The notes: a model not told the origin generated them from the letters alone. DNA of 64,000 bases from Dehalococcoidia bacterium (GCA_022820645.1 JAJEFD010000002.1:227514-291513), one strand, 5' to 3'. Shown: positions 11,941 through 59,107, counted from the stretch's first letter. Numbers and translations are program-made.

Positions 11941-11978
11941 CCCCTCTCCCTACAAGGGGAGAGGGATAGGGAGAGGGT
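11941..11978 (+). repeat. Palindromic repeat module B (CCCCTCTCCC..GGGAGAGGG..GAGGG)
   Basis: CCCCTCTCCCTACAAGGGGAGAGGGATAGGGAGAGGG. Confidence 0.75.
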
Positions 11979-12027
11979 ACTCCGGGGGGTTGTGGACGGG
12001 TTACGCAAGGTTCCTCCGGTCGACCGC

Positions 12028-12984
12028 TCACGCGAACTGCGGAGCGACCTCCTGCGCGAAACGCTCCATGACGTGCGCGTCGAACGGGCGGGGCGTCATC
12101 AGGATGAAGTGGTCGATGCCGACGTCCACCCACCTGCCCAACTGCTCCGTGATCTGCGCTGGCGAACCGAGCAACATGCTGTCACGGAACTGGTCTTCCG
12201 GCGTCGCGTAGTAGGAGGTCTCCTGCGTTGCCAGCGTGGCGCCTCTCGCAACGGTCGCCTCGACCTCTGACGCATCGTCGGTCAGTTTGATCTGTATCTG
12301 TATGGAGTGGCGCATGCCGGAGAAGTCACGGCCTGCCTCGTCGCAGACCGCCTGCATCCGGCTCAGGTTCACCTTCGCCTCCTCCAGCGGCGCGATCTGG
12401 TTGTAGTCGGTGGCGTGTTTCGCAGCGATCTGCATCGTGCGTTGGCCGCGTCCCCCGACGATGATGGGCGGGTGCGGCTGCTGCACCGGCTTGGGCATCT
12501 GGGGCGCCTCATCCAGCGAGTAGTACGTGCCCTGAAACGAGGCAGGCTCCTCGGTCCAGATCGCCTTGATGACGGAGAGCGCTTCGTCCAGCCGGTCGGC
12601 GCGCTCCTTGAACGGAGGGAACGGGATGCCGTGAACGTCGAACTCGTGCTTGACGTTGCCGCTGCCGATGCCCAGCTCCGCCCGTCCACCGGACACGTGG
12701 TCGATGGTATTGACCATCTTTGCCGTTATGACAGGGTGGCGGAAGTTGTTGTTTATCACCAGCATGCCCAGCCGGAGGTTTTTGGTGTGGCCGGCCATCG
12801 CCGCCATGACGGTAAGACCGTCGAGCCGCGCCGGAGTCGTTCCCCGGCCTGGATTGATCTGCATCAGGTGGTCCGACGGATAGAACCCGTGGAACCCGAG
12901 ATCATCGCAGGTCTGGCATATGTGCAGGAAATCGCTCCATTCGAGTCCGGAGCTCCCGCCGACGCTGAAGAGAACCTTGGCCAT
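12028..12984 (-). CDS. LLM-class (luciferase-like, probably F420-dependent) oxidoreductase
   Basis: SDH, FRHP..TAKM..T.DHVSGGR.ELG.G.G, PKPVQQPHPPII.GG. Confidence 0.9.
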   Translation of the reverse strand: MAKVLFSVGGSSGLEWSDFLHICQTCDDLGFHGFYPSDHLMQINPGRGTTPARLDGLTVMAAMAGHTKNLRLGMLVINNNFRHPVITAKMVNTIDHVSGGRAELGIGSGNVKHEFDVHGIPFPPFKERADRLDEALSVIKAIWTEEPASFQGTYYSLDEAPQMPKPVQQPHPPIIVGGRGQRTMQIAAKHATDYNQIAPLEEAKVNLSRMQAVCDEAGRDFSGMRHSIQIQIKLTDDASEVEATVARGATLATQETSYYATPEDQFRDSMLLGSPAQITEQLGRWVDVGIDHFILMTPRPFDAHVMERFAQEVAPQFA

Positions 12985-13070
12985 GTGCGCCCCCTCTGGT
13001 GGTGTCGAGGGCATTGTACCCGCTCATGCAGTTGGTCGGAGGTGGAGGACACGATGAAGGACACGAACAG

Positions 13071-13100
13071 CAGGGGGCCGGACTTGCGTCCGGCCCCCTG
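13071..13100 (-). terminator. Hairpin downstream of the EamA gene
   Basis: Perfect stem CAGGGGGCCGGAC-TTGC-GTCCGGCCCCCTG. Confidence 0.55.
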
Positions 13101-13130
13101 CTCTTGCTTGAGTCTGCCCGCCGAGGGTTC

Positions 13131-14673: not shown

Positions 14674-16665
14674 ATGACCACCCGCGTCCGAACAGAGCCG
14701 CGCGCGCCGGAGTTCGCGAACCGCCTCGGCGCCCTGCCCGCACAGCCTGGCGTCTACCTGATGAAGTCCGCTGGCGGAGGGATCCTGTACGTCGGCAAGG
14801 CTGCGAGCCTCCGCAACCGCGTACGCTCCTACTTCCAGACGCCGTACGGCAAGGAGTTGCGCATCCAGGCGTTGGTCCGGCACATCGCGGACTTCGAGTT
14901 CATCGTCACCGAGTCCGTACAGGAAGCGCTGCTGCTGGAGAACCTGCTCATCAAGCAGCACAAACCCTTCTACAACGCCCGGCTCAAGGACGACAAGACC
15001 TATCCCTACATCAAGATCGACCTCGCCGAGGAGTTCCCGCAGGTCTATTTCACCCGGCGGGTGCTGGCTGACGGTGCACGCTACTTCGGACCGTTCGCCA
15101 GCGCCAGTTCCGTTCGCAAGACGATGGACCTGCTCAAGAAACTCTTCCCCTACCGCTCCTGCACCAAGACGATCACAGGCAACGACGAGCGCCCATGCCT
15201 CGAGTACTACATCCATCGCTGTGTCGCTCCGTGTATCGGAGTGGTGGACGCCGGCGGCTACGGCGAGGTGATACGCCAGGTGCTGCGCTTCCTCGAGGGC
15301 GACTCCGAGAGCGTGGAGATGGAGCTGCGCGTCAACATGGAGCGCGCGTCCGAGTCCCTCGAGTTCGAGCGCGCCGCGGTCCTGCGCGATCAACTCCGCG
15401 CTATCGAGTCTGTCTCGCAGAACCAGAAGGTCGTCTCGAACCGGAACGAGGACTCTGACGTCATCGCGCTCGCCTACGACAAGGGCGAAGCGTGGGTCGA
15501 ACTCTTCCGCGTGCGGCGCGGCAAGCTGATCGGGCGCGACCACTTCGTGATGGAGGGCGGCGAGGCGGAGGATGAGCCGGCCCTGCTGGAGCACTTCGTC
15601 CAGCAGTTCTACGAAGCGTCCACGGACGTGCCGGGCGTGCTGTTGATGCAGCACGACATCGAGAACGCCGAGGCCATCGCCGACTGGCTCAGCGGCAAGC
15701 GGGGGCGGCGCGTCTCGGTCTACCGCCCCCAGCGTGGGGAGAAGCGCCAGCTCGTGCAGATGGCGGCCGCCAACGCCGCCGAAGCGCTGACGCAGCGGCG
15801 CATCCAATGGCTGCACGAGTCGGACAAGGTGCTGCAGGCGCTGGCCGAACTGCAGGAGGCGCTGAGCCTGCCGGAGCTGCCGCGACGCATCGAGTGCTAC
15901 GACATCTCGAACATCCAGGGCACGAACTCGGTCGGCAGCATGGTCGTCTTCGAGAACGGACGCCCGAAGAGCGGACACTACCGCCGGTTCCAGATCAAGG
16001 GCGTTGGCGGGATAGACGACTACGCCTCGATGCAGGAGATGCTGCGCAGGCGCTTCCGGAGGCTGGGCGAACAACGGCGTGCCGAAGCGGAAGCGGGGGC
16101 AAGCGCCCCCCTGCCCTCCGATACCGCGGCAACCGGTGAAACCGAGGGCCCGCCGGACGACGCGCGCGGCACGCAGAACTCGTTCGGGTTCGTGCCCGGC
16201 CTCGTCATCATCGACGGGGGCAAGGGACACCTGAACGCTGCGCAGCAGGTCTTCCTGGAATTGGGGCTGACGGACATCCCGCTTTGTTCGCTGGCGAAGC
16301 GAGAGGAGGAGGTGTTCCTGCCGCACGTCCCTGAGCCGGTGCTGCTGCCCCGGCGCTCGCAGGGGTTGTACCTCGTGCAGCGCGTGCGGGACGAGGCGCA
16401 CCGCTTCGCCATCACGTACCATCGACAGCGGCGCTCGCGGGCCGCGACGCGCTCGCGGCTCGACGACGCGCCGGGCATCGGTCCGAAGCGCCGCCGCGAG
16501 CTGATACGCCGCTTCGGGAGCGCGGCGGGCGTCCGTGCAGCGAGTGTCGAGGAGTTAGCAGACATCAAGGGCATGAGCCGTGCTTCGGCGGAGCAGTTGA
16601 AGGCGTTCCTCGGGGGAGACGACTCTCCTCCCCCGCAGGCGCAACTGGAGGAGATGGAGCGATGA
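14674..16665 (+). CDS. uvrC: Excinuclease ABC subunit C
   Basis: GIY-YIG (PGVYLM..LYVGKA..LRNRV.SYF), UVR domain, RIECYDIS, IDGGKG, RDEAHRFA, HhH. Confidence 0.97.
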   Translation: MTTRVRTEPRAPEFANRLGALPAQPGVYLMKSAGGGILYVGKAASLRNRVRSYFQTPYGKELRIQALVRHIADFEFIVTESVQEALLLENLLIKQHKPFYNARLKDDKTYPYIKIDLAEEFPQVYFTRRVLADGARYFGPFASASSVRKTMDLLKKLFPYRSCTKTITGNDERPCLEYYIHRCVAPCIGVVDAGGYGEVIRQVLRFLEGDSESVEMELRVNMERASESLEFERAAVLRDQLRAIESVSQNQKVVSNRNEDSDVIALAYDKGEAWVELFRVRRGKLIGRDHFVMEGGEAEDEPALLEHFVQQFYEASTDVPGVLLMQHDIENAEAIADWLSGKRGRRVSVYRPQRGEKRQLVQMAAANAAEALTQRRIQWLHESDKVLQALAELQEALSLPELPRRIECYDISNIQGTNSVGSMVVFENGRPKSGHYRRFQIKGVGGIDDYASMQEMLRRRFRRLGEQRRAEAEAGASAPLPSDTAATGETEGPPDDARGTQNSFGFVPGLVIIDGGKGHLNAAQQVFLELGLTDIPLCSLAKREEEVFLPHVPEPVLLPRRSQGLYLVQRVRDEAHRFAITYHRQRRSRAATRSRLDDAPGIGPKRRRELIRRFGSAAGVRAASVEELADIKGMSRASAEQLKAFLGGDDSPPPQAQLEEMER

Positions 16666-17046: not shown

Positions 17047-17285
17047 GGCGCTGCCTTGTCATGTTGAGCGGAGCCGGAGTCGAAACATCTCTCGGGTTGC
17101 CTAGCCCCCTCTCCTGAGGGAGAGGTCGCCGCAGAGCGGCGGGCGAGGGCCCCCGGCAGTGGGGCGCGGAGCGCTGCCTTGTCATGTTGAGCGGAGCCGG
17201 AGGCGGAGTCGAAATATCTCTCGGGTTGCCTGATCCCCTCTCCCTTGAAGGGAGAGGGTGAACCGGACGCGGGGCGCAGCCCACC
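17047..17285 (+). repeat. Mosaic repeat array (modules C-B-C-B)
   Basis: Two copies of GCGCTGCCTTGTCATGTTGAGCGGAGCCGGA..GTCGAAA(C/T)ATCTCTCGGGTTGCCT, each followed by CCCCTCTCC..GGGAGAGG. Confidence 0.85.
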
Positions 17286-18560
17286 TCACGCCGCGCTGCG
17301 CTTGACGAGCGTCTCCCGTGTGGCGAACGCCAACAGCAGACCGGCGATCAGGAGGACCGGCGCGTACGCGATGAACGGCGCTGTCGGCCCGACGGTGTTG
17401 AGCAGCAACCCGCCGAGCAACGGCGCGCCCACGCCTCCGACCTCCGCGACCGTCCGTCTGAACGCCTGCAGGCGGCCTCGCACGTGGTTCGGCAGGACGT
17501 CGTACGTGCTCGCTGCCAGCGAGCCGAGCGAGAGCCCGTTGCAGACCGCCATGACCCCGACGAGCGCTACCACGTGCGCGTACGTATCCACGAACGGCAT
17601 GAGCAGGAACGCCACGCCCGGCAGGAACGTGCTCGGCACCGTCGCCCACTTCCGTCCCAACTTGTCGAGAACGAACCCCGCCGGGAGGATCATTGCGAAC
17701 ACCACCCCTCCCGAGACCGAGAAGAGCGCGCCGATCTGGGTGGGCGTGAGTCCCAGCTCCGCGTCCGCGTACAGCGGCAGCACGCTCTGCAGCGTGATGC
17801 GGAACGTGAACCCCGCGAACGTCGCAAGGACGAACACCCAGTAGCTCAGGCGCAGGCCGGGTTCGATCTGCCTGAACAGGTCGATGAAGTCCCGCACGCG
17901 TTGACCGGGTCCACTCCGGACAGCCCCTTCTGTGGACTGCGACGCCGCCTGCGGCGCTCCCTGCGGGGCGTAGGCGTCGTGCGCGAACAGGCCAAGGGCG
18001 ACTGCGATGCCGGTCAGCGCGGCAAAGCCCACGAACGTCGCACGGAAGTCGATGGCCTCTGCCAGGAAGCCGCCGAGCAGCGGGCCGATCGCCAGTGCGC
18101 CAGAGTGCATCCCGTGAAAGCCGCTGAGCACCCTGCCCCGCTGGTCGAGGCGCACGAGGTCGATGCCGGCAACCTCGCGCCCGAGCGCCCAGAGGCTGTC
18201 CCCGATGCCCACGACGAACGTCGCCAGGAGGATGGGCCAGAACCACGGCGTGACTGCGCCGACGAGCGCGCCGAGCAGCACGAGCCCCGGCCCGCCTATG
18301 AGCATCTTCCGGGTGCCGAAGCGGTCGACCAGCACTCCCGCGCCCGGGATGCCGAAGAAACGCCCCAGGGCGTAGGTGGTGACGACCTGCGCCGCGGCGC
18401 CGGGGCTCACGCCGAAGTGGTCGACGAGCACCGGCGTGACCGGCAGCACCATCGCCCAGCCGGAGCCGGAGATGAGCGTTCCGGCGTACAGGTTGCCGAG
18501 GCCGCGGGCCGTGGGGCTGCGGAGCAATGCCACCGGTGAGCGGTTCACCACACTTCCCAC
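17286..18560 (-). CDS. MFS transporter
   Basis: G.LVDRFG.R and GFVLDKLGRK motif A copies; about 12 TM. Confidence 0.9.
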   Translation of the reverse strand: MGSVVNRSPVALLRSPTARGLGNLYAGTLISGSGWAMVLPVTPVLVDHFGVSPGAAAQVVTTYALGRFFGIPGAGVLVDRFGTRKMLIGGPGLVLLGALVGAVTPWFWPILLATFVVGIGDSLWALGREVAGIDLVRLDQRGRVLSGFHGMHSGALAIGPLLGGFLAEAIDFRATFVGFAALTGIAVALGLFAHDAYAPQGAPQAASQSTEGAVRSGPGQRVRDFIDLFRQIEPGLRLSYWVFVLATFAGFTFRITLQSVLPLYADAELGLTPTQIGALFSVSGGVVFAMILPAGFVLDKLGRKWATVPSTFLPGVAFLLMPFVDTYAHVVALVGVMAVCNGLSLGSLAASTYDVLPNHVRGRLQAFRRTVAEVGGVGAPLLGGLLLNTVGPTAPFIAYAPVLLIAGLLLAFATRETLVKRSAA

Positions 18561-18597
18561 CCGTCCCTGGGGGAGAGGTCGCCGCGCAGCAAGCCTC

Positions 18598-24442: not shown

Positions 24443-24448
24443 GAACCC

Positions 24449-24483
24449 TGTCATTTCGAGCGAAGCCGAGAAATCTCTCGGGG
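24449..24483 (+). repeat. Palindromic repeat module C
   Basis: TGTCATTTCGAGCGAAGCCGAGAAATCTCTCGGG. Confidence 0.75.
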
Positions 24484-26679: not shown

Positions 26680-26829
26680 ACGGCTCGTTCCGGGTTCCTG
26701 GGAAGCGTGGTTCGGGGAAGCAGGCTATGAGGGGCGCGGTTGCTGCGTCAACGGGGCAACGACAGTCCCCACCCTCTCTGCCCCTGTCCTGTCCATCCTG
26801 TCCATCGATGTTGATATACTCCACCGGCC

Positions 26830-34019: not shown

Positions 34020-34044
34020 TCCGGCGCAACCCGCGCAACTCCCT

Positions 34045-34074
34045 CCGTCATTCCCGCGCAGGCGGGGATCCAGC
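34045..34074 (+). repeat. Palindromic repeat module A
   Basis: CCGTCATTCCCGCGCAGGCGGGGATCCAG. Confidence 0.75.
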
Positions 34075-34110
34075 ATGACCGGGAGTGTTAGTCAACAAGG
34101 AGGAAACGCT

Positions 34111-35019: not shown

Positions 35020-35034
35020 CGCGATGAGCGAGTT

Positions 35035-35090
35035 CCGTCATTCCCGCACCGGCGGGAATCCAGAGCGCGCGGGCAGCGCGCACGGGGCGG
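35035..35090 (+). repeat. Palindromic repeat module A with linker
   Basis: CCGTCATTCCCGCACCGGCGGGAATCCAG-AGCGCGCG..GCGCACGGGG. Confidence 0.75.
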
Positions 35091-40852: not shown

Positions 40853-41120
40853 CAGCCCCCGTCGTTCCAGCGAAAGCTGGAATCCAGAAGTTTGGTGTAG
40901 GGGCATCCCTTGTGGGTGCCCTTGTATGCCCACCTCTCCCCGGGGGAGAGGTCGCCGCGCAGCGGCGGGTGAGGGTGAACCGGACGTGGGGCGCAGCCCC
41001 CGTCATTCCAGCGAAAGCTGGGATCCAGAAGTTTGGTGTAGGGGCATCCCTTGTGGGTGCCCTCGTAGCCCACCTCTCCCTCGGGGAGAGGTCGACGCGC
41101 AGCGGCGGGTGAGGGCCTCC
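40853..41120 (+). repeat. Tandem duplication (141-bp period) of an A-D-B mosaic unit
   Basis: GTC(G/A)TTCCAGCGAAAGCTGG.ATCCAG-AAGTTTGG-TGTAGGGGCATCCCTTGTGGGTGCCC-..-CACCTCTCCC..GGGAGAGG..GGGTGAGGG, twice. Confidence 0.9.
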
Positions 41121-41122: not shown

Positions 41123-42013
41123 CTACTGCCCACCCCCCACCACGCGGACGTGGCCGTGCAGCACGATCTGCGGGCCGGGTTCGACCGCGCCCATCTCCGA
41201 TTCGACGCTGACGCCAAGCCTGCTCATGCCGCCGGGGTGTCCGAGCAGGTGGACCCACGCGTAGCCGCCCTCTCCCACGGTGAACACCGCCGCGCTCTTG
41301 GTCTGGTGCTCCTGGTCCCACCACCACGCCCGGTAGATGAAACCGGGCTCCAGCGCGCTGAGGCCCCTCACGACGAGCATGCTCTGGCCGTCCGGCCTCG
41401 TGATGAGGATGCCTCGGGCGTGCCTGGCGCCATAGCGGGCCTCCTGCTCCTTCGGCGCCTCCTCGGTCTCCGATACGGGCTGCGCGGGCGTGAGGGCGGT
41501 CATCGCAACGCTGTCCGCGACCATGTCGCTGAGCCCGACGAGGTCGCTGCGGACGTCTTCCGCCTCTGCGGTCACCACGTCCACCTCGCCCTGCAGCTGC
41601 ACCACGCGCTGCTGCTGCATGGTCGAGAACGCGCCCAGCCCCATGACCGCCACGGCGAGCGCGGCGGCAACGCCGAGCAGTGCGAACGGCACGCGCGGCG
41701 CGGGACGCACAACCGGCTCCGCGGCGGAACCGCGCACCCGTCCCATGATGCGCTCGCGCACCTCGGCGCTCGGAACCGCGAACGTATGGGAGGCCGCGAG
41801 CGCGCCAACGCTCTCCAGCTGCTGCTCCAGCATCTCCCGGTAGCGTGGCTCGCGATCGAGGGCGCGTTCGACGACCAGCGCGTCCGCTGCGTCCAGCGCC
41901 CCGAGGGCGTAGGCCGGCAGCAGCCCGGCTATCTCGTCCCCCGCCTCATTCCCCTCTCCTTCTGGGAGAGGGTCAGGGTGAGGGTACTGCGGCTCTAACG
42001 GCTCGTCGGCCAT
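41123..42013 (-). CDS. Anti-sigma factor (RskA-like)
   Basis: LLPAYALGALD, P...R.RIM, single TM helix, Y.AWW, VSVE...G..P; coupled to the ECF sigma gene. Confidence 0.85.
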   Translation of the reverse strand: MADEPLEPQYPHPDPLPEGEGNEAGDEIAGLLPAYALGALDAADALVVERALDREPRYREMLEQQLESVGALAASHTFAVPSAEVRERIMGRVRGSAAEPVVRPAPRVPFALLGVAAALAVAVMGLGAFSTMQQQRVVQLQGEVDVVTAEAEDVRSDLVGLSDMVADSVAMTALTPAQPVSETEEAPKEQEARYGARHARGILITRPDGQSMLVVRGLSALEPGFIYRAWWWDQEHQTKSAAVFTVGEGGYAWVHLLGHPGGMSRLGVSVESEMGAVEPGPQIVLHGHVRVVGGGQ

Positions 42014-42615
42014 CACGCCCCCTCCGGTGCGGGTGCATTCATCGTCTGCCTCAACTTGCTCAGTCCTAGGCGCAGGCGGGTCTTGACCGTGCCGAGCGGT
42101 GTCCCCGTGCGCTGCGCTATCTCCTGTTGTGTCGCGCCTTCCAGGTATGCCATCACGATGACGACGCGCTGCTCCTCCGGCAGTGCGCGCAGGGCCTCGC
42201 GCGCCTCGCCGACCAGCACGGACGTTATCGCCTCGTCCGCGGTGTCGCCGGAAGAGACGAGCCCGAGTGTCGCGTCCTCCGGCGCCCTGTCGGCGTCCAT
42301 CAGTGCGGCCCGGCGCCTGCGGCGCACCTCGTCGATCACGCGGTTGTGCGCCAGGTGCAGGAACCAGTGCCGGAAGACGCCCTTCGCTGCGTCGAACCGC
42401 CCTGCCCGCGTCCAGAGCGCCACGAAGACCTCCTGGGCGAGGTCCTCGGCGAGTGCGTAGTCCCTGAGTATCCCGTACGCCATGCTGAACACCTGCACGC
42501 CGTAGCGGTTGTAGAGCTCCTCGAGCGAGCCCGCGTCACCGGCCGCAACACGGGAAGCCAGAACGGCGTCCGGTTGGGCAGTCAGAGTGAGGGACACGTT
42601 CTCACCGCTCGCCAT
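42013..42615 (-). CDS. ECF sigma factor (SigK-like)
   Basis: GD..SLEELYNRY, AEDLAQEVF..LW..A.RFD...G, AY.EG.TQ.EIA.....PLGTVKTRLR. Confidence 0.92.
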   Translation of the reverse strand: MASGENVSLTLTAQPDAVLASRVAAGDAGSLEELYNRYGVQVFSMAYGILRDYALAEDLAQEVFVALWTRAGRFDAAKGVFRHWFLHLAHNRVIDEVRRRRRAALMDADRAPEDATLGLVSSGDTADEAITSVLVGEAREALRALPEEQRVVIVMAYLEGATQQEIAQRTGTPLGTVKTRLRLGLSKLRQTMNAPAPEGA

Positions 42616-43900: not shown

Positions 43901-44262
43901 GCAGCCCCCGTCATTCCCGCGAAGGCGGGAATCCAGCGCGCGAAGCGCCTTTATCACCTCGCCCCTTGGGAGAGGAAGCTGCCGCATGGCAGCCGGTGAG
44001 GGTGAACCAGACGCGGGGCGTAGCCCCCGTCATTCCCGCGAAGGCGGGAATCCAGCGCGCGAAGCGCCTTTATCCACCTCGCCCCCTGGGAGAGGTCAAC
44101 GCGCGACAGCGCGGCGGGTGAGGGTGAACCGGTGGGGCGGCGGTGGGGCCTGTCATGCTGAGCAAAGCGCAGCGGAGTCGAGGCATCTCTCGGGTAGCGC
44201 CCGCTCATGGTGAGCCTGTCGAATCACCGTCGTTCCCGCGAAGGCAGGAACCTCGCAGCCAC
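43901..44262 (+). repeat. Mosaic repeat array (A-B)x2, C, E, A
   Basis: Two units about 119 bp apart beginning AGCCCCCGTCATTCCCGCGAAGGCGGGAATCCAG, then TGTCATGCTGAGC..GCATCTCTCGGG, CGCTCATGGTGAGCCTGTCGAA, CCGTCGTTCCCGCGAAGGCAGGAACCTCGC. Confidence 0.9.
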
Positions 44263-45235: not shown

Positions 45236-45318
45236 CCGTCGTTCCTGCCCTGCCCCGTCATTCTCGCGAAGGCGGGAATCCAGGGTGGGCTGCCGCATGG
45301 CAGCCGGTGAGGGTGCCC
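45236..45318 (+). repeat. Mosaic repeat (A plus partial B)
   Basis: CCGTCGTTCCTGC..CCGTCATTCTCGCGAAGGCGGGAATCCAG..GCTGCCGCATGGCAGCCGGTGAGGG. Confidence 0.8.
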
Positions 45319-46142: not shown

Positions 46143-46180
46143 CCCCTCTCCTGAGGGAGAGGGTTAGGGTGAGGGCCCTC
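46143..46180 (+). repeat. Palindromic repeat module B supplying the MFS stop codon
   Basis: CCCCTCTCCTGAGGGAGAGGGTTAGGGTGAGGGCCC. Confidence 0.8.
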
Positions 46181-47462: not shown

Positions 47463-47531
47463 CGAATCTCCCGGAGGGGCGTGCTGCAGGCAACCTACCC
47501 CGTCAGCGCAGGCAGGTCAAACCGAGTAGCT

Positions 47532-47575
47532 TGTCATTCCGAGCGAAGCGCAGCGGAGCCGAGGAATCTCTCGGA
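47532..47575 (+). repeat. Palindromic repeat module C
   Basis: TGTCATTCCGAGCGAAGCGCAGCGGAGCCGAGGAATCTCTCGG. Confidence 0.8.
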
Positions 47576-51715: not shown

Positions 51716-51820
51716 TCCCTCTCCTGAGGGAGAGGGTTGGGGTGAGGGCCCTTGGAGGGGGTGTGGGGTGAGCCTTGTCATGCTGAGCGGAGCGCAGTGG
51801 AGTCGAAGCATCTCTCGGGG
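51716..51820 (+). repeat. Mosaic repeat (B plus C)
   Basis: CCCTCTCCTGAGGGAGAGGGTTGGGGTGAGGG; TGTCATGCTGAGCGGAGCGCAGTGGAGTCGAAGCATCTCTCGGG. Confidence 0.85.
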
Positions 51821-51851: not shown

Positions 51852-53162
51852 TTACGCCCCGTTGTGTCCGTTCGTGCCCATCCGTGCCGCAAGCGCCTCC
51901 GCGTTGCGCTTCCACACCGACGACCAATCCTCCGACTTCGGGATGACCTCTTGCCACGCGCCGATGTGGTTGAAGACGTTGGCCGACGCCTCGCGGACCA
52001 CGTGCGGCGCCTCCGCCCCGTCCTGCACCTGCTGCGTTGCCCTCAGCAGCAGACGCCGCGACAGCGCGACCGCCTTGTCCGTGTAGCCCAGATGCTCCGT
52101 CGTCCGGTCCTGTATCGCACCCTCCCCCTCCGTCGCCCACATGTCGTGGACGGGGAAGCTCGGGCCCATGCCGAGGAAGCTGCGCGTCCGCATCTCCTCG
52201 CGGTCCTGCAGGTAGCGGTTGCGCAGGTTGCGCTCGTTCGTGTAGTCGTCCTTCAGCCCCTCGAACATCGTGAGCCCGAGCGCGTCCTTCGGCAGCGGCC
52301 CCTCCGAGCGCACCATGAACATGAACTTCCAGTGGTGCGTGTCGTCTATCGGCACGTGCCAGTTGACCCCGAACACGCCCGGGAACGCAGGGAACGACGC
52401 CAGGTTCGGGTAGATGAAGTTCGTGATGCGCACGTAATCGTCGCCCGCGTCCGTGTCCCGCACCGCGTAGATGCGGATGCCGTAGTCCGTCTCCTCGACC
52501 TCGATCGTCGGCGACGGGTCGTCGCCCATCATGCGGTTCGACGTCGCCGCCCCGCCCTGCACGTTGCCGGTCGCGACCCTGCTGCCGCTGGCGTCCTCGC
52601 GGATGAAGAAGTGCAGGAACGAGAGGTGTTGCGGGTCGATGTTCCCCTCGTTCCCCTGCTGGTAGTTGCACTCGTGATAGATCTTCGTGACGACGCGGTG
52701 CTCCGGCGCGATGTCCAGGAACTCGTACGCCGGTAGCAGCGGCGGCTCGCCCGGCCCCAGGTACGCGAACACGACGCCCGCGCGCTCCATCACCGGGTAC
52801 GAGCGCAGCTGGATCTTGTCCTTGAACGTGCTGCCCTCAGGCTCCCCCGGCTGCTCGAGGCAGTTGCCGTGGACGTCGTACAGCCAGCCGTGGTACAGGC
52901 AGCGCAGCCCGCCGTCCTCGATGCGCGCGTAGCTCAGGTCCGCCGCGCGGTGGGCGCAGTGCCGGTCCACGAGCCCGAGGCGGTCGTACTGGTCGCGGAA
53001 GAGCGTCAGGTCCTCGCTCAGGACGCGCACCGGGATCGGAGCGCTGCCCGGCTCGATCTCCTCCGCCAGCGCGACCGGCTGCCAGTAGCGCCGGAGCAGC
53101 TCCCCTGCGGGATCGCTGGGCCCCGTTCGGCAGAGCAGTTCGTTCTCTTCCCTCGTCAGCAT
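51852..53162 (-). CDS. Rieske oxygenase alpha subunit, copy 5
   Basis: CAHR..CLYHGW, EGNIDPQHLSFLH, HD..ATEGEG.IQDRT.EHLG. Confidence 0.93.
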   Translation of the reverse strand: MLTREENELLCRTGPSDPAGELLRRYWQPVALAEEIEPGSAPIPVRVLSEDLTLFRDQYDRLGLVDRHCAHRAADLSYARIEDGGLRCLYHGWLYDVHGNCLEQPGEPEGSTFKDKIQLRSYPVMERAGVVFAYLGPGEPPLLPAYEFLDIAPEHRVVTKIYHECNYQQGNEGNIDPQHLSFLHFFIREDASGSRVATGNVQGGAATSNRMMGDDPSPTIEVEETDYGIRIYAVRDTDAGDDYVRITNFIYPNLASFPAFPGVFGVNWHVPIDDTHHWKFMFMVRSEGPLPKDALGLTMFEGLKDDYTNERNLRNRYLQDREEMRTRSFLGMGPSFPVHDMWATEGEGAIQDRTTEHLGYTDKAVALSRRLLLRATQQVQDGAEAPHVVREASANVFNHIGAWQEVIPKSEDWSSVWKRNAEALAARMGTNGHNGA

Positions 53163-53184
53163 GGCGTACCTCCCTTGCTTGTCA

Positions 53185-53542
53185 CCCTCTCCCGCTGGGA
53201 GAGGGTAACGCGCTTCAGCGCGGGGTGAGGGTGTTCCCTATCCTCTTGCGGACAATGGGAGTCTAGGAGCGTGGCGTCCGCCGGTCAACGCCGCCCCATT
53301 CCGTCATTCCAGCACCGGCTGGAATCCAGTGTGCGCGACAACGGAGCGCACGTGGGGCGGAGCGGGGTATGGGGACCTTGTCATTTCGAGCGAAGCGAAG
53401 CGCAGTCGAGAAATCTCTCGGGCTGTCCGTCGTTCCCGCGCTTAGCGCGCAACCTCGCCTGATGTAGGGGCGTCCCTTGTGGGCGCCCGTTTCCCACCTC
53501 TCCCTCGGGGAGAGGTCGCCGCCTCTGGCGGCGGGTGAGGGT
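53185..53542 (+). repeat. Mosaic repeat array (B, A, C, partial A, D, B)
   Basis: CCCTCTCCCGCTGGGAGAGGG..GGGGTGAGGG; CCGTCATTCCAGCACCGGCTGGAATCCAG; TGTCATTTCGAGCGAAGC..GAGAAATCTCTCGGG; TGTAGGGGCGTCCCTTGTGGGCGCCC; CACCTCTCCCTCGGGGAGAGG..GGGTGAGGG. Confidence 0.9.
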
Positions 53543-53549
53543 TGCCGCC

Positions 53550-54521: not shown

Positions 54522-55567
54522 TGCTCCTCCATCAGCCAGCAGGCGGCGGTGTGTCCCCCAGGGCCGGTGAACTCCACCGGGTACGTCTCCTCACACCGAT
54601 CGTGGACGTGGGGACAGCGCACCGCGAACCGGCAGCCCTGCGGCAGCGCGAAGAGCGCGGGCGGCTGCCCCTCTATCGCGGTGAGCCGCTCGACCCGTTC
54701 CTCCATCTTCGGGATGGAGCCGAGCAACGCCTGCGTGTACGGGTGCGACGGGTTGTCGAATATCTCGTGGATGCCCCCCTGCTCCACGATGCGCCCCGCG
54801 TACATCACCGCGACCCTGTCGCACATCCGCGCGACGACGCCCAGGTCGTGCGTGATGAACAGGATGGCCACGCCCGTCTCGCGCTGTATCTCCTTGAGCA
54901 GGTTGAGGTACTGCGCCTGTATCGTCACGTCCAGCGCCGTCGTCGGCTCGTCCGCGATCAGCAGCCGGGGCTGGCTCTCGATGGCGATGCCGCCGACCAC
55001 GCGCTGCTTCATGCCGCCGCTCATCTGGTGCGGGAAGTCGGAGAGACGCCGCTCCGGCGCCGCAACCCGCATCATCCGCAGCACCTCCACCGCCCGCTCC
55101 CTGACCGACTGCTGCCCCTTACCCGTCGTTCCTGCGCCCACTCCTGTCGTTCCTGCGCCCTTCTCCGTCATTCCTGCGGAGGCAGGAACCTCGCCCCTGC
55201 CCCTGTTCGCCGCGATCGACTCCGTCAACTGGTTGCCGATGGTGAACACCGGGTTCAGCGCCGTCTGCGGGTCCTGCAGGATCATCGATATCTTGCGCCC
55301 TCGCATCTGGCGCACGTCCGCCATCCGCATCCGCACGATGTCGTCGCCGTCGAGCAGGATGCGCCCCCCGACGATGCGCGCGGCCTCCGGCAGCAGGCGC
55401 AGCAGCGAGAGCGCGGTCATGCTCTTGCCGGAGCCGGACTCCCCCACGAGCCCCAGCGTCTCGCCCTCGCGTATCTGGAAACTCACGCCGTCGACAGCGC
55501 GCGTCACCCCCCACTTGGTGAAAAGGTGCGTCTGGAGTTCCTGCACGTCCAGGACGACGTTGCTCAC
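54500..55567 (-). CDS. Peptide/nickel ABC transporter ATPase (DppD/OppD-like) with an in-frame repeat insertion
   Basis: GESGSGKS, MSGGMKQR, ADEPTTALD, GCRF..RC; GTG start overlaps the Rieske stop. Confidence 0.93.
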   Translation of the reverse strand: MSNVVLDVQELQTHLFTKWGVTRAVDGVSFQIREGETLGLVGESGSGKSMTALSLLRLLPEAARIVGGRILLDGDDIVRMRMADVRQMRGRKISMILQDPQTALNPVFTIGNQLTESIAANRGRGEVPASAGMTEKGAGTTGVGAGTTGKGQQSVRERAVEVLRMMRVAAPERRLSDFPHQMSGGMKQRVVGGIAIESQPRLLIADEPTTALDVTIQAQYLNLLKEIQRETGVAILFITHDLGVVARMCDRVAVMYAGRIVEQGGIHEIFDNPSHPYTQALLGSIPKMEERVERLTAIEGQPPALFALPQGCRFAVRCPHVHDRCEETYPVEFTGPGGHTAACWLMEEQWKPTSS

Positions 55568-56838
55568 GACACCCCGACCGCGAACCGCTCTTCCAGCGGA
55601 CGCTCGACCCGCCATGGACTGTCCACCGGCTGCACGTACGCGTCCGACTTGATCAACTCGTAGTCGCCCTGCTCCCACACGCCCGGCGGCTCGACGCCCT
55701 CTTCCGCGAGCGCGATGGCGGCCTTGATGTACAGCTTGCGCGCCCTGATGATCGCCGCGTCCGTCGTGCCGAGGTGCTCGATGGTGCGGTCGACGATGGG
55801 CCCCATGCTCTCCTGCACCGCGTTGTCCTGCACGAACAGCCCCCGGATGCCGGACCAGCTCTCCTTCTTCATCAGTTCGCGGTCCTGCAGCCACATGTTC
55901 TGCGGCCCCGCGTACTTCACGAACGTCTTCGGGTCGAACGCGTAGTAGCCCCGGTACTCCTTCAACTGCTCCTTCAGCTCGTCGGACATCGGCTTCGTCT
56001 CGTTGAAGCACACGTCCCACGCCCAGCAGGTGCCGTCGTCGCGAGGCACCCACATGTTCCAGATGCGGTTGTCCTCCCGGGAGAACGGCGGGTACGACGA
56101 CGCCGGCATGATGTGGGGCGTTATCCGCACGTAGCGCTTGGCCTCATCCGGCCCCTTGCGTATCGAGGCGTACCGGAAGCCGTAGGTGGTCTCCTCTATC
56201 TCCAGTTTCGGCCTCGTGTCGTTGAACATCAGGTTGTTCCCGCTCTGCGCGCCGGGAGCGACCATCGGCCCTTCCGCGCTGTTGTGCAGGAACGACGCGT
56301 GCACGGTGTCGATGCCGCCCTCCAGGCTCTGCAGCCAGTTCGCGTCCTGTATCCACTTCGCCATGATGCGGTTCGAGTCCGGCACCGTCGTCCAGTAGTA
56401 GACCGGGAACGGCGGCTCGCTCTCCGGAGCGCCCATGTACACCCACACCGCGCCTCCGTGCTCCCGCACCGCGTACGCCCCTGCCCGCACCTTGTTGCGG
56501 AAGCCGCTCTCCACGGGTTCGGTCGGCATGTCGACGCACTGGCCGCTGACGTCGAACTTCCAGCCGTGGTAGAGGCAGCGCAGGCCGTCGTACTCGTTGC
56601 GGGCGAGCGCGAGCGATACCCCGCGGTGCGGGCAGTACTCCGAGAGGATGCCCACCTCGCCGCTCGTGTCTCGGAAGGCGACGAGGTCCTCGTTCAGCAG
56701 GCGGAAGCGCACCGGAGCGCCGTCGGCCTCCAACTCGTCGGAGATCAGCGCGGGCAGCCAGTAGCGGCGGAAGAGCGCGCCCATCAGCGTGCCCCTGCCC
56801 GTGCGGGTGATGAGCTCGTTGTCAGCGTGGCTCAACAT
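55564..56838 (-). CDS. Rieske oxygenase alpha subunit, copy 6 (phthalate 4,5-dioxygenase/PobA-like)
   Basis: CPHR..CLYHGW, EGGIDTVHASFLH, QD.AVQESMGPI.DRT.EHLG..D. Confidence 0.93.
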   Translation of the reverse strand: MLSHADNELITRTGRGTLMGALFRRYWLPALISDELEADGAPVRFRLLNEDLVAFRDTSGEVGILSEYCPHRGVSLALARNEYDGLRCLYHGWKFDVSGQCVDMPTEPVESGFRNKVRAGAYAVREHGGAVWVYMGAPESEPPFPVYYWTTVPDSNRIMAKWIQDANWLQSLEGGIDTVHASFLHNSAEGPMVAPGAQSGNNLMFNDTRPKLEIEETTYGFRYASIRKGPDEAKRYVRITPHIMPASSYPPFSREDNRIWNMWVPRDDGTCWAWDVCFNETKPMSDELKEQLKEYRGYYAFDPKTFVKYAGPQNMWLQDRELMKKESWSGIRGLFVQDNAVQESMGPIVDRTIEHLGTTDAAIIRARKLYIKAAIALAEEGVEPPGVWEQGDYELIKSDAYVQPVDSPWRVERPLEERFAVGVS

Positions 56839-56990
56839 GCGGCCCCTCCTTACCATTCATGGCGCTCGCGCCTTTGGCGTGCCTGCGTCTCCGTGCGTAT
56901 AATGCGCCCCTGCTCGGGTCGTTCGCCTAATCTTAACGTCGGCGAACGGTTCTGCAAGAGCATACGCTCATACGCGGCAAGGGGGGAGTC

Positions 56991-58871
56991 GTGCGTAACA
57001 TCAGGAAGCAGGCCCGTTTGGTTACGGTTGTGGGGGTCATGGCTCTCTTCGCCTTGTTCGGCGCGGCGTGCGACGGCGAAGACCCCACCGCAACGCCCAC
57101 GCCGACAAGCCCGCCGGCCCCGTCCGGAACGACGCCGGACGCTCCCGCGCCCGACCCGACGGCTACCCCTGTGCCTGAACCCATGGGCCCCGCCGTCGAC
57201 CGCGTTATCATGGCCGTTGCGTCCCCGACCGACTTCAGCAACATCCGGCGCATCCCCGGTCAGGCCAGCAACTGGTACATCCGCCCGCACTACGAGTACC
57301 TCGTCGGCTTCGACAAGACGAACGGCGCTTATGTGCCCCAGCTCGCGGTCGAATATGGCCTCGAGCCGGACGGCCACTCCTGGCGGTTCAAGCTGCGCGA
57401 GGGCGTCCAGTTCCACAACGGCCACGGCGAGTTCACCGCCGAGGACGTCCGCTTCTCCTGGCTCATGAACATCCTGCCGGACGACGTCGGCAGCGAGGCT
57501 CGGACGATGCGCGACATCGTCAAGGACGTCGAGATCGTCGGCCCTTACGAGGTCGTCTTCCGGACCGAGGCCCCGAACGCCGATGTCTTCGAAGTCATCT
57601 CGGAGATCCAGGGCGGCATGGAGATCGCCAGCAAGGCGGACTTCCTCTCGCGCGGTCCCGGACTGCTCGCAAGCAAGCAGTCCTCCGAGTGGGGCGCCTA
57701 CGAGGACGACCCGCGCCTCGCTGAACTCGTTGACGGACGCGACCCGCTCGGGAACGAGGTACCGCTCGCAGGCACCGGCCCCTACACTATCGTCTCCATG
57801 GACGAGCAGACCGGCGTCGTCTACGAGCGCGTGGAAGACCACTGGCGCGACACGCCGGACTTCCCCGAGTTCGAGTTCCAGTTCATCAACGAGGCATCCA
57901 CCCGGCACGCGAAACTGGTAGCGGGCGAGGTCCACCTTGCCAAGCTGCCGGAAGAGCTGCTCGTGGACGCGGAGTCGCGCGGTTTCGTCACCTTCACCGC
58001 TCAGGTCCCCGCGGCGCGCTACTTCCTCGCCTGGCAGGGCGTCTACGTCCCCGCGGGGCCCAACCTCGCCAACGACCGCCACGGCGAGTGGAGCGGCGAA
58101 CTCGCTCAGAAGGAGTTCCCCGCCTACCCCAACACGCCGCTCGCCAACCTGAACGTCCGCAAGGCGCTCAACAAGGCCATCGACCGCGATGAACTCAACG
58201 ATGCCTTCTTCGCGGGCAAGGGTCTCACCATGTACAAGAACCACTATCTGCCGGACAACGCGCAGCGCGTGGGCTGGAACCCCGAGTGGGTGACCCGCTT
58301 CCCGGACGAGTACGGCTACGACCCTGAGGCCGCAAGGGCGCTCCTGGAGCAGGGTCTGCAGGAACTCGGCATCGACCAGCTGCAGACGACGATCCAGCTC
58401 ACCGTCCAGCCCGCCGTCCCCGCCGGCGTGGACGTCATGCAGGCCATCGCCAACTACTGGCGCGACATCGGTGTCGACGTCATCGAACAGAGCGTCGACG
58501 CTGCGGAGTACCGCACCAAGCAGCGTGAGATGCGCTGGGACAACCACGTCGTGCCCATCGCAACGAGCGGCGCACAGTTGGTGACCGTGCACGTCTATGG
58601 CAGCTCCCTCATCCCGGTCCTCTACATCGGGCTGCAGGACCCGGCCGCCGAGGCCATCATGCGCGAAGCCCTCGACACCAACACGCCGCAGGACCGCGAT
58701 GACCTCCTCCGGGAGCTCGGCGACATGTACTACAACCTCCACCAGGACATCCCGCTCTTCTACCTGCCGAACGAGGTCGTCGCCGACCCCGACGTAGTCG
58801 CCGACTTCATCTACTCCGGCATGGTCTCCGGCGCCCCGATCGACCACCTCGAAGGCGCCGTCGCTAAGTAA
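56991..58871 (+). CDS. Peptide/nickel ABC transporter substrate-binding lipoprotein (SBP family 5)
   Basis: Lipobox FGAAC, Pro/Thr linker, FKLREGVQFHNG.GEFTAEDV.FS, GTGPY, VRKALNKAIDR, YDPEAA. Confidence 0.93.
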   Translation: MRNIRKQARLVTVVGVMALFALFGAACDGEDPTATPTPTSPPAPSGTTPDAPAPDPTATPVPEPMGPAVDRVIMAVASPTDFSNIRRIPGQASNWYIRPHYEYLVGFDKTNGAYVPQLAVEYGLEPDGHSWRFKLREGVQFHNGHGEFTAEDVRFSWLMNILPDDVGSEARTMRDIVKDVEIVGPYEVVFRTEAPNADVFEVISEIQGGMEIASKADFLSRGPGLLASKQSSEWGAYEDDPRLAELVDGRDPLGNEVPLAGTGPYTIVSMDEQTGVVYERVEDHWRDTPDFPEFEFQFINEASTRHAKLVAGEVHLAKLPEELLVDAESRGFVTFTAQVPAARYFLAWQGVYVPAGPNLANDRHGEWSGELAQKEFPAYPNTPLANLNVRKALNKAIDRDELNDAFFAGKGLTMYKNHYLPDNAQRVGWNPEWVTRFPDEYGYDPEAARALLEQGLQELGIDQLQTTIQLTVQPAVPAGVDVMQAIANYWRDIGVDVIEQSVDAAEYRTKQREMRWDNHVVPIATSGAQLVTVHVYGSSLIPVLYIGLQDPAAEAIMREALDTNTPQDRDDLLRELGDMYYNLHQDIPLFYLPNEVVADPDVVADFIYSGMVSGAPIDHLEGAVAK

Positions 58872-58880
58872 CGACCGCTC

Positions 58881-58914
58881 ACGGGGCGGGCTCCGCTTTT
58901 GGAGCCCGCCCCGT
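58881..58914 (+). terminator. Stem-loop after the SBP gene
   Basis: ACGGGGCGGGCTCC-GCTTTT-GGAGCCCGCCCCGT. Confidence 0.55.
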
Positions 58915-59107
58915 CGTTCCTGCCATCTTCGTCATTCCCGCGAAGGCGGGAATCCAGCGTGCGCGACAGCGGAGCGCACATGGGGAGGAGTGGAGGGAAA
59001 AACTGTCACGCTGAGCATCCCTCGTCGTTCCTGCGAAGGCAGGAACTCGCAGCCCACCTCTCCCTCGAGGGCGAGGTCGTCGCGCAGCAGCGCGGCGGGT
59101 GAGGGTG
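58911..59107 (+). repeat. Mosaic repeat array (partial A, A, partial C, A, B)
   Basis: CGTCATTCCCGCGAAGGCGGGAATCCAG; CGTCGTTCCTGCGAAGGCAGGAACTCGC; CACCTCTCCCTCGAGGGCGAGG..GGGTGAGGG. Confidence 0.85.

Follow-up and report, generated by a model that had tools for sequence, protein, structure and literature searches.

Co-oriented mosaics of REP-type hairpin repeats in a Dehalococcoidia genome: orientation is coupled to local GC skew and not to the present replichore

Introduction

The window analysed here, a stretch of 64,000 nucleotides from a Dehalococcoidia bacterium (GCA_022820645.1, JAJEFD010000002.1:227514-291513), raises the question of why short hairpin repeats of several families, interleaved in mosaics, should all lie on one strand irrespective of the genes around them. 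The original prediction, made from the nucleotide sequence alone, attributed this polarity to the replication fork, implying either a dispersal mechanism shared by several families or a polar chromosome signal. The question is of wider interest, as the SRM/NTS repeats and their Ssn nucleases were first described in 2025 (PMC11893778) and the CGTC REPs have had no known mobiliser. A strand rule common to four families and tied to replication-type skew would suggest that these elements pass through a single-stranded stage associated with the fork. A literature search on REP orientation relative to replication and on SAR202 repeats returned no paper describing such a polarity.

Materials and methods

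The source genome of the window (G000) is 94.9% complete and consists of contigs (e.g., C9, C13 and C15). It was compared with the closed chromosome of a sister genome (G005), to which it has a median protein identity of 95%; the two are not independent. Profiles for modules A to D were trained with nhmmer on genome-wide copies and applied with cut-offs of E ≤ 1 and E ≤ 0.01, and genes in both genomes were called with a simple caller of our own. Comparisons across the genus covered 22 genomes for gene homologs and 5 to 21 genomes for locus presence, the latter from the coordinates of BLAST pieces. GC3 skew was taken in plus-strand coordinates, separately for genes on the plus and on the minus strand.

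Results and discussion

Repeat loci in the window

The prediction of at least 14 loci built from a small set of hairpin modules was borne out, as the profiles for modules A to D place 16 loci in the window, with all 36 matches at E ≤ 1 on the plus strand and in every gene context (five loci between -/- genes, four +/-, three +/+, two -/+ and two intragenic). At E ≤ 0.01 the same holds for 32 of 32 matches (A 12, B 10, C 7, D 3), and a regular-expression scan of both strands yielded 12+/0- for A, 7+/0- for C and 3+/1- for D, the single minus match of D (57778) being a bare 9-mer within a gene. The features, with the state of the corresponding site in G005 or the genus where compared, are as follows.

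11941..11978, plus: B-like short hairpin, CCCCTCTCCC..GGGGAGAGGG plus a GGGAGAGGG tail, flanked by two minus-strand genes; direct reading, under the nhmmer threshold
17055..17262, plus: C-B-C-B array flanked by convergent genes, its tandem measuring about 123 bp; profile; site empty in G005, missing from most of 21 genus genomes and present in G001 (BLAST pieces)
18557..18587, plus: single B between -/- genes; profile; orthologous G005 site without B
24448..24482, plus: single C, a TGTC-tagged hairpin, between convergent genes; profile; G005 has A-D-B at this intergenic site instead, in opposite relative orientation
26786..26812, plus: F, short direct units of CCTGTCCATC type, in a divergent promoter region
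34043..34075, plus: single A, an SRM/NTS-type hairpin, between +/+ genes; regular expression and profile; kept in G005 with a 1-nt deletion, where the profile missed it
35033..35065, plus: single A with a second, GC-rich hairpin after it, flanked by +/+ genes; regular expression and profile; site empty in G005, absent from G018, G013, G014 and G003, present in G001
40856..41116, plus: array A-D-B-A-D-B (two units of 141 bp), placed precisely between the stop codons of a convergent gene pair; repeat finding (D13, D17) and profile; in G005 the two genes are 3 nt apart
41950..41986, plus: B inside the 5' part of the minus-strand gene 41123-42016; profile; the G005 ortholog is about 44 nt shorter at this position
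43905..44257, plus: array A-B-A-B-C-A including module E at about 44202; profile; two 53-nt copies are 100% identical
45253..45285, plus: single A with a 5' half-copy before it, flanked by -/- genes; profile; site empty in G005, presence mosaic across the genus
46143..46176, plus: short B between -/- genes; profile E = 0.16 and match to the short-B regular expression
47530..47574, plus: single C between divergent genes; profile E = 4.9e-14
51717..51819, plus: array B-C between -/- genes; profile; empty in G005
53183..53543, plus: array B-A-C-D-B between -/- genes; profile; the G005 counterpart is 82 nt with F-like CTGTCCATC units
55162..55193, plus: A of the GTCATTCCTGC subtype with two 5' half-copies before it, inside a gene called on the minus strand; profile; missing from the G005 ortholog
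58926..59107, plus: array A-A-B between +/+ genes; profile; G005 has one A in the same relative orientation

Modules E and F, which had been noted as single copies, are present in the window but have few further copies in the genome (E 13-mer 3+/3-; F double unit 2+/0-, single unit 12+/12-), F being a low-copy element and not a hairpin family.

Identity of the modules

The repeat families were also recovered by repeat finding (D10 and D12 corresponding to A, D13 and D18 to B, and D20 to C). They occur far more often than expected by chance, the pattern of module A having 151 matches in the genome as compared to none for a reversed-pattern control. Its profile consensus TCCCCCGTCATTCCCGCGAAGGCGGGAATCCAGCGT agrees with the NTS definition CGTCATTCCCGCGMAVGCGGGAATCYRG, in which orientation is given by the non-palindromic flanks (PMC11893778), also in the GTC upstream of the palindrome and the C that follows it, and it likewise fits the published description of CGTC-1 with its CGTC tag, 8-bp stem beginning with AT, 4-nt loop and CCA tail (PMC3733652). 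The predicted fold has a stem ATTCCCGC/GCGGGAAT with a GAAG loop and -8.9 kcal/mol (z only -1.85, the sequence being short). Judged by its consensus, module A is a known element, namely the SRM/NTS hairpin or CGTC-1 REP of dRS3 type, in line with the dRS3 likeness claimed before, and it is a candidate single-stranded recognition site of Ssn GIY-YIG nucleases. Module C is a TGTC-tagged relative. Module D, also recognised correctly as GTAG-type, has GTAG 5' of an imperfect palindrome (TGTAGGGGC..GCCC, hairpin of -7.8 kcal/mol, z = -2.9) and is a GTAG-tagged REP without RAYT, and module B is a hairpin of CT/GA blocks that ends in a GGGTGAGGG tail. The loci are BIME/NIME-like mosaics in which four REP-type hairpin families are combined, and the genome is of the Dehalococcoidia/SAR202 type, a marine-type member of the Chloroflexota.

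Mixed-family architectures include AB, AC, AD, ADB, ABC, ACDB and BACDB, the preferred order being A, then C, then D, then B, and the arrays of G000 and G005 together comprise 192 single A, 34 AB, 11 AA and 8 ADB. Apart from two loci in G005 with head-to-head A, head-to-head pairs are formed by C only. REPs in BIMEs alternate in orientation; the present arrays are co-oriented.

Orientation across the genome

The all-plus state is a property of the region and not of the genome. The window is part of an unbroken run of 25 plus loci (C9:134-286 kb) that flips to minus at about 293 kb, and the reverse-oriented copies that are lacking in the window by profile are found elsewhere, with 351+/283- genome-wide in G000, arranged in co-oriented domains. 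Neighbouring loci agree in 181 of 227 cases (permutation mean 113.5, z = 9) and in 152 of 171 when less than 10 kb apart, and co-orientation falls with distance from 27/27 under 1 kb to 20/38 at 10-30 kb. As to domain geometry, tagged strands point towards each other over short distances and away from each other across long gaps that are poor in repeats.

As had been proposed, orientation does not depend on transcription. The strand of flanking genes is a weak predictor (47+/24- between ++ genes, 24+/35- between -- genes), and the gene-strand bias of a region shows no correlation with orientation (r = 0.06); by these two measures and the gene contexts in the window, transcription was ruled out as the organiser. 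That the repeats act as RNA elements such as terminators or stabilisers of mRNA, with an orientation set by the genes that they serve, is accordingly very unlikely. It would agree with the mild excess of co-orientation in ++/-- contexts (82 vs 48) and with the location of REPs in other bacteria, mostly downstream of genes (PMC3733652), but plus copies in the window follow plus or minus genes alike, lie between convergent and divergent genes and occur inside minus genes, and an Rfam search matched one tRNA only.

In turn, orientation is coupled to a strand skew of the replication type. It correlates with GC3 skew with r = -0.634 in plus genes and r = -0.623 in minus genes, and the skew gap between the neighbourhoods of plus and minus repeats is about 0.17-0.18 in both gene classes alike; AT3 skew gave no useful signal. 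On the closed G005 chromosome, whose skew shows a well-defined minimum close to dnaA and a well-defined maximum (no DnaA-box cluster was found in a scan of this chromosome), 267 of 325 loci follow the local GC3 skew but only 177 the present replichore, and of the runs of at least three loci 33 of 37 carry the sign predicted from skew. In G000, 181 of 243 loci follow local skew. As anticipated, the rule is common to several families, being obeyed by A (87:29 in G005, 53:23 in G000), B (37:2 and 23:10), C (21:8 and 28:8) and D (3:1 and 8:2). The claim that orientation follows the fork therefore stands as far as replication-type skew is concerned but not for the present replichore, and a simple switch at ori and ter, the absence of which had been named beforehand as refuting, is ruled out on G005; 'orientation switches at ori/ter' is too simple a rule where the skew of a genome is patchy. 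The majority orientation puts the tagged strand on the C-rich strand, i.e., the leading-strand template. The uniformity of the window is due to its position inside a single replichore-consistent domain; its plus strand is the counterpart of the lagging strand in the right replichore of the sister chromosome.

These counts also bear on a selected polar chromosome signal of the KOPS, Chi or primosome type, read by a machine moving with or against the fork. A polarity common to several families would suit it, as would the fact that B, with its G-rich GGGAGAGG/GGGTGAGGG blocks, is the most polar family in G005. However, such a signal should follow the present replichore, whereas module A occurs as 85+/84- on the right and 65+/55- on the left replichore of G005, neither of which has the strong present-leading-strand bias typical of KOPS and Chi; the G-rich blocks are found on the C-rich strand, the reverse of what is usual for KOPS and Chi; and 94 of 227 assessable loci (about 40%) are absent from G005 in spite of the median protein identity of 95%. 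A polar signal, the second alternative of the original prediction, thus finds no support and is highly improbable.

A reading in which replication plays no part assumes regional copying by tandem duplication, template switching or gene conversion between arrays, with orientation inherited from neighbours. The decay of co-orientation with distance, the tandem units of the window (141-bp ADB and 123-bp CB, each twice) and a cluster of 26 copies among duplicated paralogs in G005 argue for it. However, it leaves unexplained why independent runs share the same sign relative to skew and why each family holds to the rule as single-module loci, so that we regard it as improbable.

Rearrangement and turnover of loci

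Why local skew and present replichore disagree in places is indicated by recent substitutions. Per-site synonymous differences of C/T as against A/G, taken over 2081 ortholog pairs, are biased towards the replichore-leading strand in all bin classes alike, the asymmetry D being +0.134 (se 0.012) in concordant bins, +0.179 (se 0.023) in discordant bins and +0.191 (se 0.018) in bins with oppositely pointing repeats. Since recent substitutions track the replichore even there, the discordant patches are relics of rearrangement. In addition, lineage-specific inversions flip repeats and skew together: C13:117-171 kb, an inverted segment in G000 as compared to G005, has reversed skew and minus repeats inside a plus contig, and block f (G005 1.310-1.328 Mb) shows the converse pattern.

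The same data dispose of the idea that local skew is produced by the repeats, or by Ssn acting on them in transformation or repair, through exposure of one strand. An additive fit (0.0385 x replichore + 0.0306 x signed repeat index) explains more than replichore alone (R2 0.46 vs 0.215), and skew is strongest beside repeats. Yet substitution asymmetry tracks the replichore with the same sign and size where repeats oppose it (D = +0.191 vs +0.140), and patch skew is therefore maintained by no ongoing local process; this explanation was rejected by the synonymous test and hardly merits consideration.

Presence of the window loci across 5 to 21 genus genomes, in which gains are unpolarised, is mosaic and not tree-like, which suggests old polymorphism and loss. 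Alignments of filled and empty sites against G005 showed no clear target-site duplication or target motif. Among loci present in G005 but empty in G000 within discordant patches older than the split, 30 follow the patch and 4 the present replichore, as regional copying would have it; were many of these loci new insertions, the fork would not set orientation, which counts against the reading preferred below and against which only the mosaic presence of the window loci can be set. Moreover, discordance is seldom seen in repeat-free 20-kb bins (of 38 such bins, 5 are below zero and 2 below -0.05), and in bins whose repeats agree with the replichore the skew is double the baseline (0.087 vs 0.045), so that one must further assume flexible regions to combine repeats, rearrangements and weak codon constraint.

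Candidate mobilisers

The ssn gene encodes a single-domain GIY-YIG protein of about 94 aa and is flanked by the motif (PMC11893778). No ssn gene was found in G000 (94.9% complete); a second GIY-YIG match there (C15:155241) was rejected as a larger, different protein with no flanking repeats, which adjoins a methyltransferase-like frame. Small GIY-YIG genes flanked by module A, for which a search had been suggested, occur in sister genomes: G005 has three single-domain genes of 103-104 aa (Pfam E 5e-13 to 4e-16), two of them flanked on both sides as A(+)...A(-). Of 22 genus genomes, 17 have a homolog, the other five having 89-184 copies of A as compared to up to 1288 in genomes with a homolog. 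NCBIfam holds no model for these small proteins, and their nearest solved structures are UPF0213 proteins (E = 1.5e-4). RAYT or Y1 transposases (PF01797), also suggested as mobilisers, are found neither in G000 nor in the closed G005, with weak matches (27-33 bits) in three of 22 genus genomes. TnpB and IS110 were rejected likewise, being absent from both, with IS110 in G003 only (4 copies). With no ssn in G000 and no RAYT in G005, no mobiliser is demonstrated.

Ssn might also shape polarity by purging. The nuclease, which cleaves the NTS strand only and only as ssDNA (PMC11893778), would cut the tagged strand where it is exposed on the lagging-strand template, such copies being lost or lethal, and copies on the leading-strand template would survive. 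The majority orientation agrees with this, and polarity is somewhat stronger in G005, which has ssn, than in G000, which lacks it (267/325 vs 181/243). However, strongly discordant bins of G005 are not depleted of repeats (6.9 vs 4.9 copies per 20 kb in concordant bins), discordant zones hold 98 loci in the supposedly hazardous orientation as opposed to 8, and B, C and D, which are not known Ssn substrates, obey the same rule. Purging is therefore unlikely, though less so than the other alternatives considered.

A possible mechanism

Taken as a whole, the observations are best explained by ssDNA hairpin elements fixed with one fork polarity and then moved by inversions, to which we assign a probability of about 0.5. 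Most likely, the elements would be gained, or kept, through a single-stranded step at replication forks, by which the strand with the 5' CGTC, TGTC or GTAG tag would become the C-rich, lagging-strand sequence. Once fixed they would be long-lived; deletion would remove them, recombination would shuffle them between lineages, and inversions and translocations would flip them along with the surrounding GC3 skew. As elements and skew would be flipped together, orientation would be a fossil of past replication direction, matching local skew and not necessarily the present replichore. We infer that polarity was set at the fork with participation of Ssn. Counting against this, the tagged strand, which is the one open to cleavage by Ssn, is found on the leading-strand template, the reverse of what the IS608 rule is commonly taken to say.

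A more far-reaching version, which we put forward tentatively and regard as rather doubtful, holds that four unrelated hairpin families share one strand rule because of the same single-stranded entry at the fork, that Ssn-type GIY-YIG nucleases play for CGTC/SRM elements the part of RAYT for GTAG REPs, that orientation is a durable fossil surviving rearrangement, and that the geometry of the domains reflects directional local spread. In practice, repeat orientation together with gene-strand-corrected GC3 skew marks inverted segments in these heavily rearranged genomes.

Relation to known repeat systems

The present system resembles NTS/SRM with Ssn (Chenal et al. 2025, PMC11893778) not only in the consensus of module A but also in its hundreds of clustered, mostly intergenic copies and in the SRM-ssn-SRM arrangement with single-domain GIY-YIG genes of about 100 aa in sister genomes. 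It differs in its host, the term Chloroflexota being absent from the main text of that paper, in the presence of repeats without ssn in G000, in the head-to-tail interleaving of A with three other families, and in the coupling to GC skew, which that text does not mention ('lagging' and 'leading strand' occur 0 times each).

With IS200/IS605 and RAYT/REPIN elements it would share recognition of ssDNA hairpins and a replication-linked orientation bias, IS200 families being orientation-biased in many chromosomes and REP tandem arrays of P. fluorescens SBW25 having opposite orientation on the two chromosome halves (PMC3333891, PMC3116915, PMC3971601). Unlike in those systems, neither Y1 transposase nor TnpB accompanies the repeats in G000 or G005, a fossil skew is followed instead of the present replichore, and the tagged strand is on the lagging-strand sequence.

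The tags (CGTC in A, the TGTC variant in C, 5' GTAG in D) and the occurrence of intragenic copies are those of the CGTC-1 and GTAG REPs described by Di Nocera et al. (2013, PMC3733652), who report no CGTC family in Chloroflexi. Unlike the CGTC REPs, which form mainly head-to-head dimers (PMC3733652), module A is here mostly single or part of a head-to-tail mosaic. The interleaving of short families in a preferred order is shared with the Neisseria intergenic mosaic elements (PMC3733652) and with the BIMEs of E. coli.

Hairpin modules in the window

Repeat searching of the window recovered the modules of the original prediction, which are plainly visible in the intergenic sequences. Four nhmmer profiles (modules A to D), seeded from genome-wide regular-expression matches and run against both strands, gave 36 matches in the window at E ≤ 1 and 32 at E ≤ 0.01, and all of them lie on the + strand, as had been claimed. 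With gene coordinates from a simple codon-usage caller, not a standard program, the 16 loci are found between -/- (5), +/- (4), +/+ (3) and -/+ (2) genes and inside - strand genes (2); at the latter (41950-41986 and 55140-55193) the modules form an inserted stretch missing from the orthologs in the sister genome G005. The sole match in an Rfam search of the window was a tRNA gene, and repeat searching also revealed six paralogous genes with 60-96% identical stretches in common, several of which are separated by repeat arrays:

404-477, tRNA gene (Rfam RF00005, 69.4 bits)
18598-19899, - strand, paralogous gene of about 1.3 kb
24545-25855, - strand, paralogous gene of about 1.3 kb
49185-50417, - strand, paralogous gene of about 1.3 kb
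50404-51666, - strand, paralogous gene of about 1.3 kb
51852-53162, - strand, paralogous gene of about 1.3 kb
55564-56838, - strand, paralogous gene of about 1.3 kb

The profile consensus of module A, which comes in two stem subtypes, is TCCCCCGTCATTCCCGCGAAGGCGGGAATCCAGCGT; on folding it gives a hairpin with a stem of 8 bp and a loop of 4 nt. Judged by its sequence, module A can be equated with the NTS/SRM motif CGTCATTCCCGCGMAVGCGGGAATCYRG as given in the main text of Chenal et al. 2025 (PMC11893778) and with the CGTC-1 REP family, which according to the main text of PMC3733652 includes dRS3 of Neisseria, so that the likeness to dRS3 noted at the outset was correct. Half-copies of its 5' part (GTCGTTCCTGC, return arm missing) lie directly upstream of full A hairpins, at most two in tandem, at 45236-45250, 53428-53440, 55142-55165 and 58905-58920; a regular expression for half-copies matched the window twice on the + and never on the - strand. 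Module C carries a TGTC variant of the tag and module D a GTAG tag, while module B, for which no established name was found, consists of a CCTCTCCC/GGGAGAGG hairpin followed by a second GC hairpin and a GGGTGAGGG tail. Most arrays in the window's own genome (G000; assembly of 2.75 Mb in 19 contigs, GC 66%, completeness 94.9%) and G005 taken together contain a single module (A 192, B 76, C 69, D 15), and where modules are combined, they tend to come in the order A, C, D, B (AB 34, AC 15, ADB 8, ACDB 4). Module C frequently forms head-to-head pairs ('Cc'), present in 29 of the 32 mixed loci of G000, and the reverse arrangement ('cC') was not seen. These pairs measure about 100-125 bp, have their TGTC tags outermost (e.g., contig C9:293242-293388 and C13:25253-25360) and resemble MITEs or REPINs.

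Orientation domains and local GC3 skew

Throughout G000, 634 non-overlapping module matches were obtained, 351 on the + and 283 on the - strand, and since both strands are used genome-wide, the uniform orientation in the window is a regional property. The 508 confident matches form 275 loci (130 +, 113 -, 32 mixed), and 181 of 227 neighbouring pairs of pure loci are co-oriented (label permutation: mean 113.5, sd 7.5), with the proportion declining as spacing grows (<1 kb, 27/27; 1-3 kb, 70/77; 3-10 kb, 55/67; 10-30 kb, 20/38; >30 kb, 9/18). The window is part of a run of 25 consecutive + loci. The strand of the flanking genes has little effect (+/- loci: ++ 47/24, -- 24/35, +- 26/25, -+ 18/16), and regional gene-strand bias and repeat orientation are hardly correlated (r = 0.064).

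Orientation is coupled to GC skew at third codon positions (GC3 skew), computed in + strand coordinates for + and - genes separately. Near + as compared to - repeats of G000, the skew is -0.208 versus -0.027 in + genes and +0.030 versus +0.201 in - genes (r = -0.634 and -0.623, respectively), i.e., the C-rich strand carries the tagged strand with the 5' CGTC, TGTC or GTAG. The same rule is found in 106 repeat-bearing 20-kb bins of G005 (Spearman rho -0.64), runs of three or more loci have the predicted sign in 33 of 37 cases in G005 and 21 of 28 in G000, and each of the four modules obeys the rule where it is alone at a locus. The skew is patchy along the G005 chromosome and on contigs C9, C13 and C19 of G000.

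Convergent switches, at which the tagged strands face each other (+ then -), are close (median gap 6.1 kb in G005, 7.3 kb in G000) and divergent ones wide (21-23 kb), a difference that holds without gaps below 2 kb (p = 1e-4 and 7e-4). Accordingly, the skew near a repeat reaches further 5' of the tagged strand than 3'.

Replichores of the closed sister chromosome

G005 is a single contig of 2,869,799 bp with 2181 reciprocal best matches to G000 (median identity 95%). Its cumulative GC skew reaches a single minimum at 1.10 Mb, close to dnaA (1.15 Mb), and a single maximum at 2.56 Mb; as leading strands are G-rich, the + strand is leading from 1.1 to 2.56 Mb. The chromosome contains 289 copies of A, 241 of B, 142 of C and 61 of D, and within each replichore orientations are almost evenly split (A: 85+/84- right, 65+/55- left). 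Orientation was expected to switch at origin and terminus, and this fails in G005: only 177 of 325 pure loci are oriented as the replichore predicts. The sign of the local GC3 skew, corrected for gene strand and taken within 10 kb, is matched by 267, and in cases of conflict between the two predictions 98 loci side with the local skew and 8 with the replichore. The proposal that orientation follows the fork and not transcription is therefore borne out as to the minor role of gene strand and the close agreement with local skew, but not as to the present replichore. Genes show no leading-strand bias in G005 (617 of 1272 co-oriented with the fork in the right replichore, 663 of 1252 in the left).

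The window corresponds to 2.365-2.433 Mb of G005, inverted, in the right replichore, which makes its + strand lagging-strand sequence and its + copies replichore-consistent. Skew is positive at about 20-24.4 kb of the window, and the G005 counterpart of this stretch carries 26 copies in the opposite direction. Of the 20-kb bins of G005, 23 of 143 in the substitution analysis and 21 of 144 by a gene-based measure are strongly opposed to their replichore.

Discordant patches and turnover of loci

A linear fit of bin skew with replichore (0.0385) and a signed repeat index (0.0306) as terms has an R2 of 0.46, compared to 0.215 for replichore alone, and repeat-free bins are seldom discordant (5 of 38 below zero), which suggested that the repeats themselves might generate skew. 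Synonymous third-position differences between 2081 G000-G005 ortholog pairs (unpolarised, normalised by site and gene strand) argue against this. The excess of C/T over A/G differences on the replichore-leading strand is +0.134 (se 0.012) in concordant and +0.179 (se 0.023) in discordant bins, and +0.139, +0.140 and +0.191 in bins with no, replichore-consistent and replichore-opposite repeats, respectively. Current mutation bias thus follows the replichore everywhere, even where repeats oppose it, and discordant skew is a decaying relic.

Lineage-specific rearrangements show how such patches originate. C13:117-171 kb of G000 is inverted relative to G005, with skew and repeats both reversed; G005 1.310-1.328 Mb is the converse case, and a large origin-spanning inversion separates the two genomes. 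The latter was noted at about 0.861 and 1.462 Mb of G005 (versus contigs C8 and C10 of G000) and spans the skew minimum; what is a single 46-kb co-oriented negative-skew patch on C8 is divided by it into two discordant patches in G005.

Among 227 G000 loci with assessable orthologous sites in G005, 101 have the same orientation there, 6 the opposite, 26 are mixed and 94 have no repeat detected, at least one of these 'empty' sites (window 34043) being a profile miss; the architecture is identical at only 19. Alignments of filled and empty sites between both genomes gave no clear target duplication. Window loci are present in a mosaic fashion over 5-21 genomes of the genus (by BLAST piece coordinates), e.g., the A copy at window 35033 occurs in G000 and G001 and is absent from G018, G013, G014, G003 and G005, a pattern that suggests old polymorphism together with loss and recombination, and not recent gain.

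Taken together, the data fit hairpin elements that became fixed in a single polarity with respect to the fork, were long kept, and flipped along with their surroundings. The main threat to such a fork-coupled origin is that loci found only in G005 and lying in old discordant patches side with the patch by 30 to 4. Precedents are the orientation bias of IS200-family elements and the REP tandem arrays of SBW25, opposite on the two chromosome halves (passages in PMC3333891, PMC3116915 and PMC3971601); no discussion of strand polarity of SRM or CGTC repeats with respect to replication was found in the main texts of PMC11893778 and PMC3733652.

Partner genes and candidate mobilisers

According to the main text of PMC11893778, Ssn, a GIY-YIG nuclease of about 94 aa, binds the NTS hairpin and cuts the NTS strand alone, as ssDNA only, and the motif typically flanks ssnA genes; the unrelated bacteria that the paper names as rich in SRM include Rhizorhabdus wittichii and Wolbachia. 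No ssn-type gene was found in G000; of its two GIY-YIG matches, the 664-aa gene at window 14674-16665 is probably UvrC and the other is an unrelated protein. G005 has three single-domain GIY-YIG genes of 103-104 aa, and two of them have A(+) upstream and A(-) downstream, in line with the suggestion to look for small GIY-YIG genes flanked by the modules. The A copies at these genes and solo A copies of the window have in common a second hairpin, GTGCGCG..CGCGCAC, 3' of A. Discordant bins of the ssn-positive G005 are no poorer in repeats than concordant ones (6.9 vs 4.9 copies per bin), which weakens the view that polarity results from purging by Ssn instead of being set at insertion.

Homologs of the small GIY-YIG genes are present in 17 of 22 genomes of the genus; the five without have 89-184 A matches, those with up to 1288. 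Over eight further closed chromosomes of the genus (G001-G004, G007, G009, G031 and G032), some carrying ssn and others lacking it, A counts range from 58 to 1288. The family is very widespread (E ≤ 1e-10 for 7983 of 8000 scored candidates), and some relatives of about 95 aa, labelled Beta- or Gammaproteobacteria, are 72-76% identical.

Y1 transposase (RAYT), IS110 and TnpB genes were not found in G000 or G005. REPs are known targets of IS110 elements, and G003, another genome of the genus, contains an IS110-family transposase with four matches of identical score (C1 1731404, 1800282, 2228626 and 2241582). The A pattern occurs in 22 of 201 sampled Chloroflexota genomes, with high counts limited to few families.
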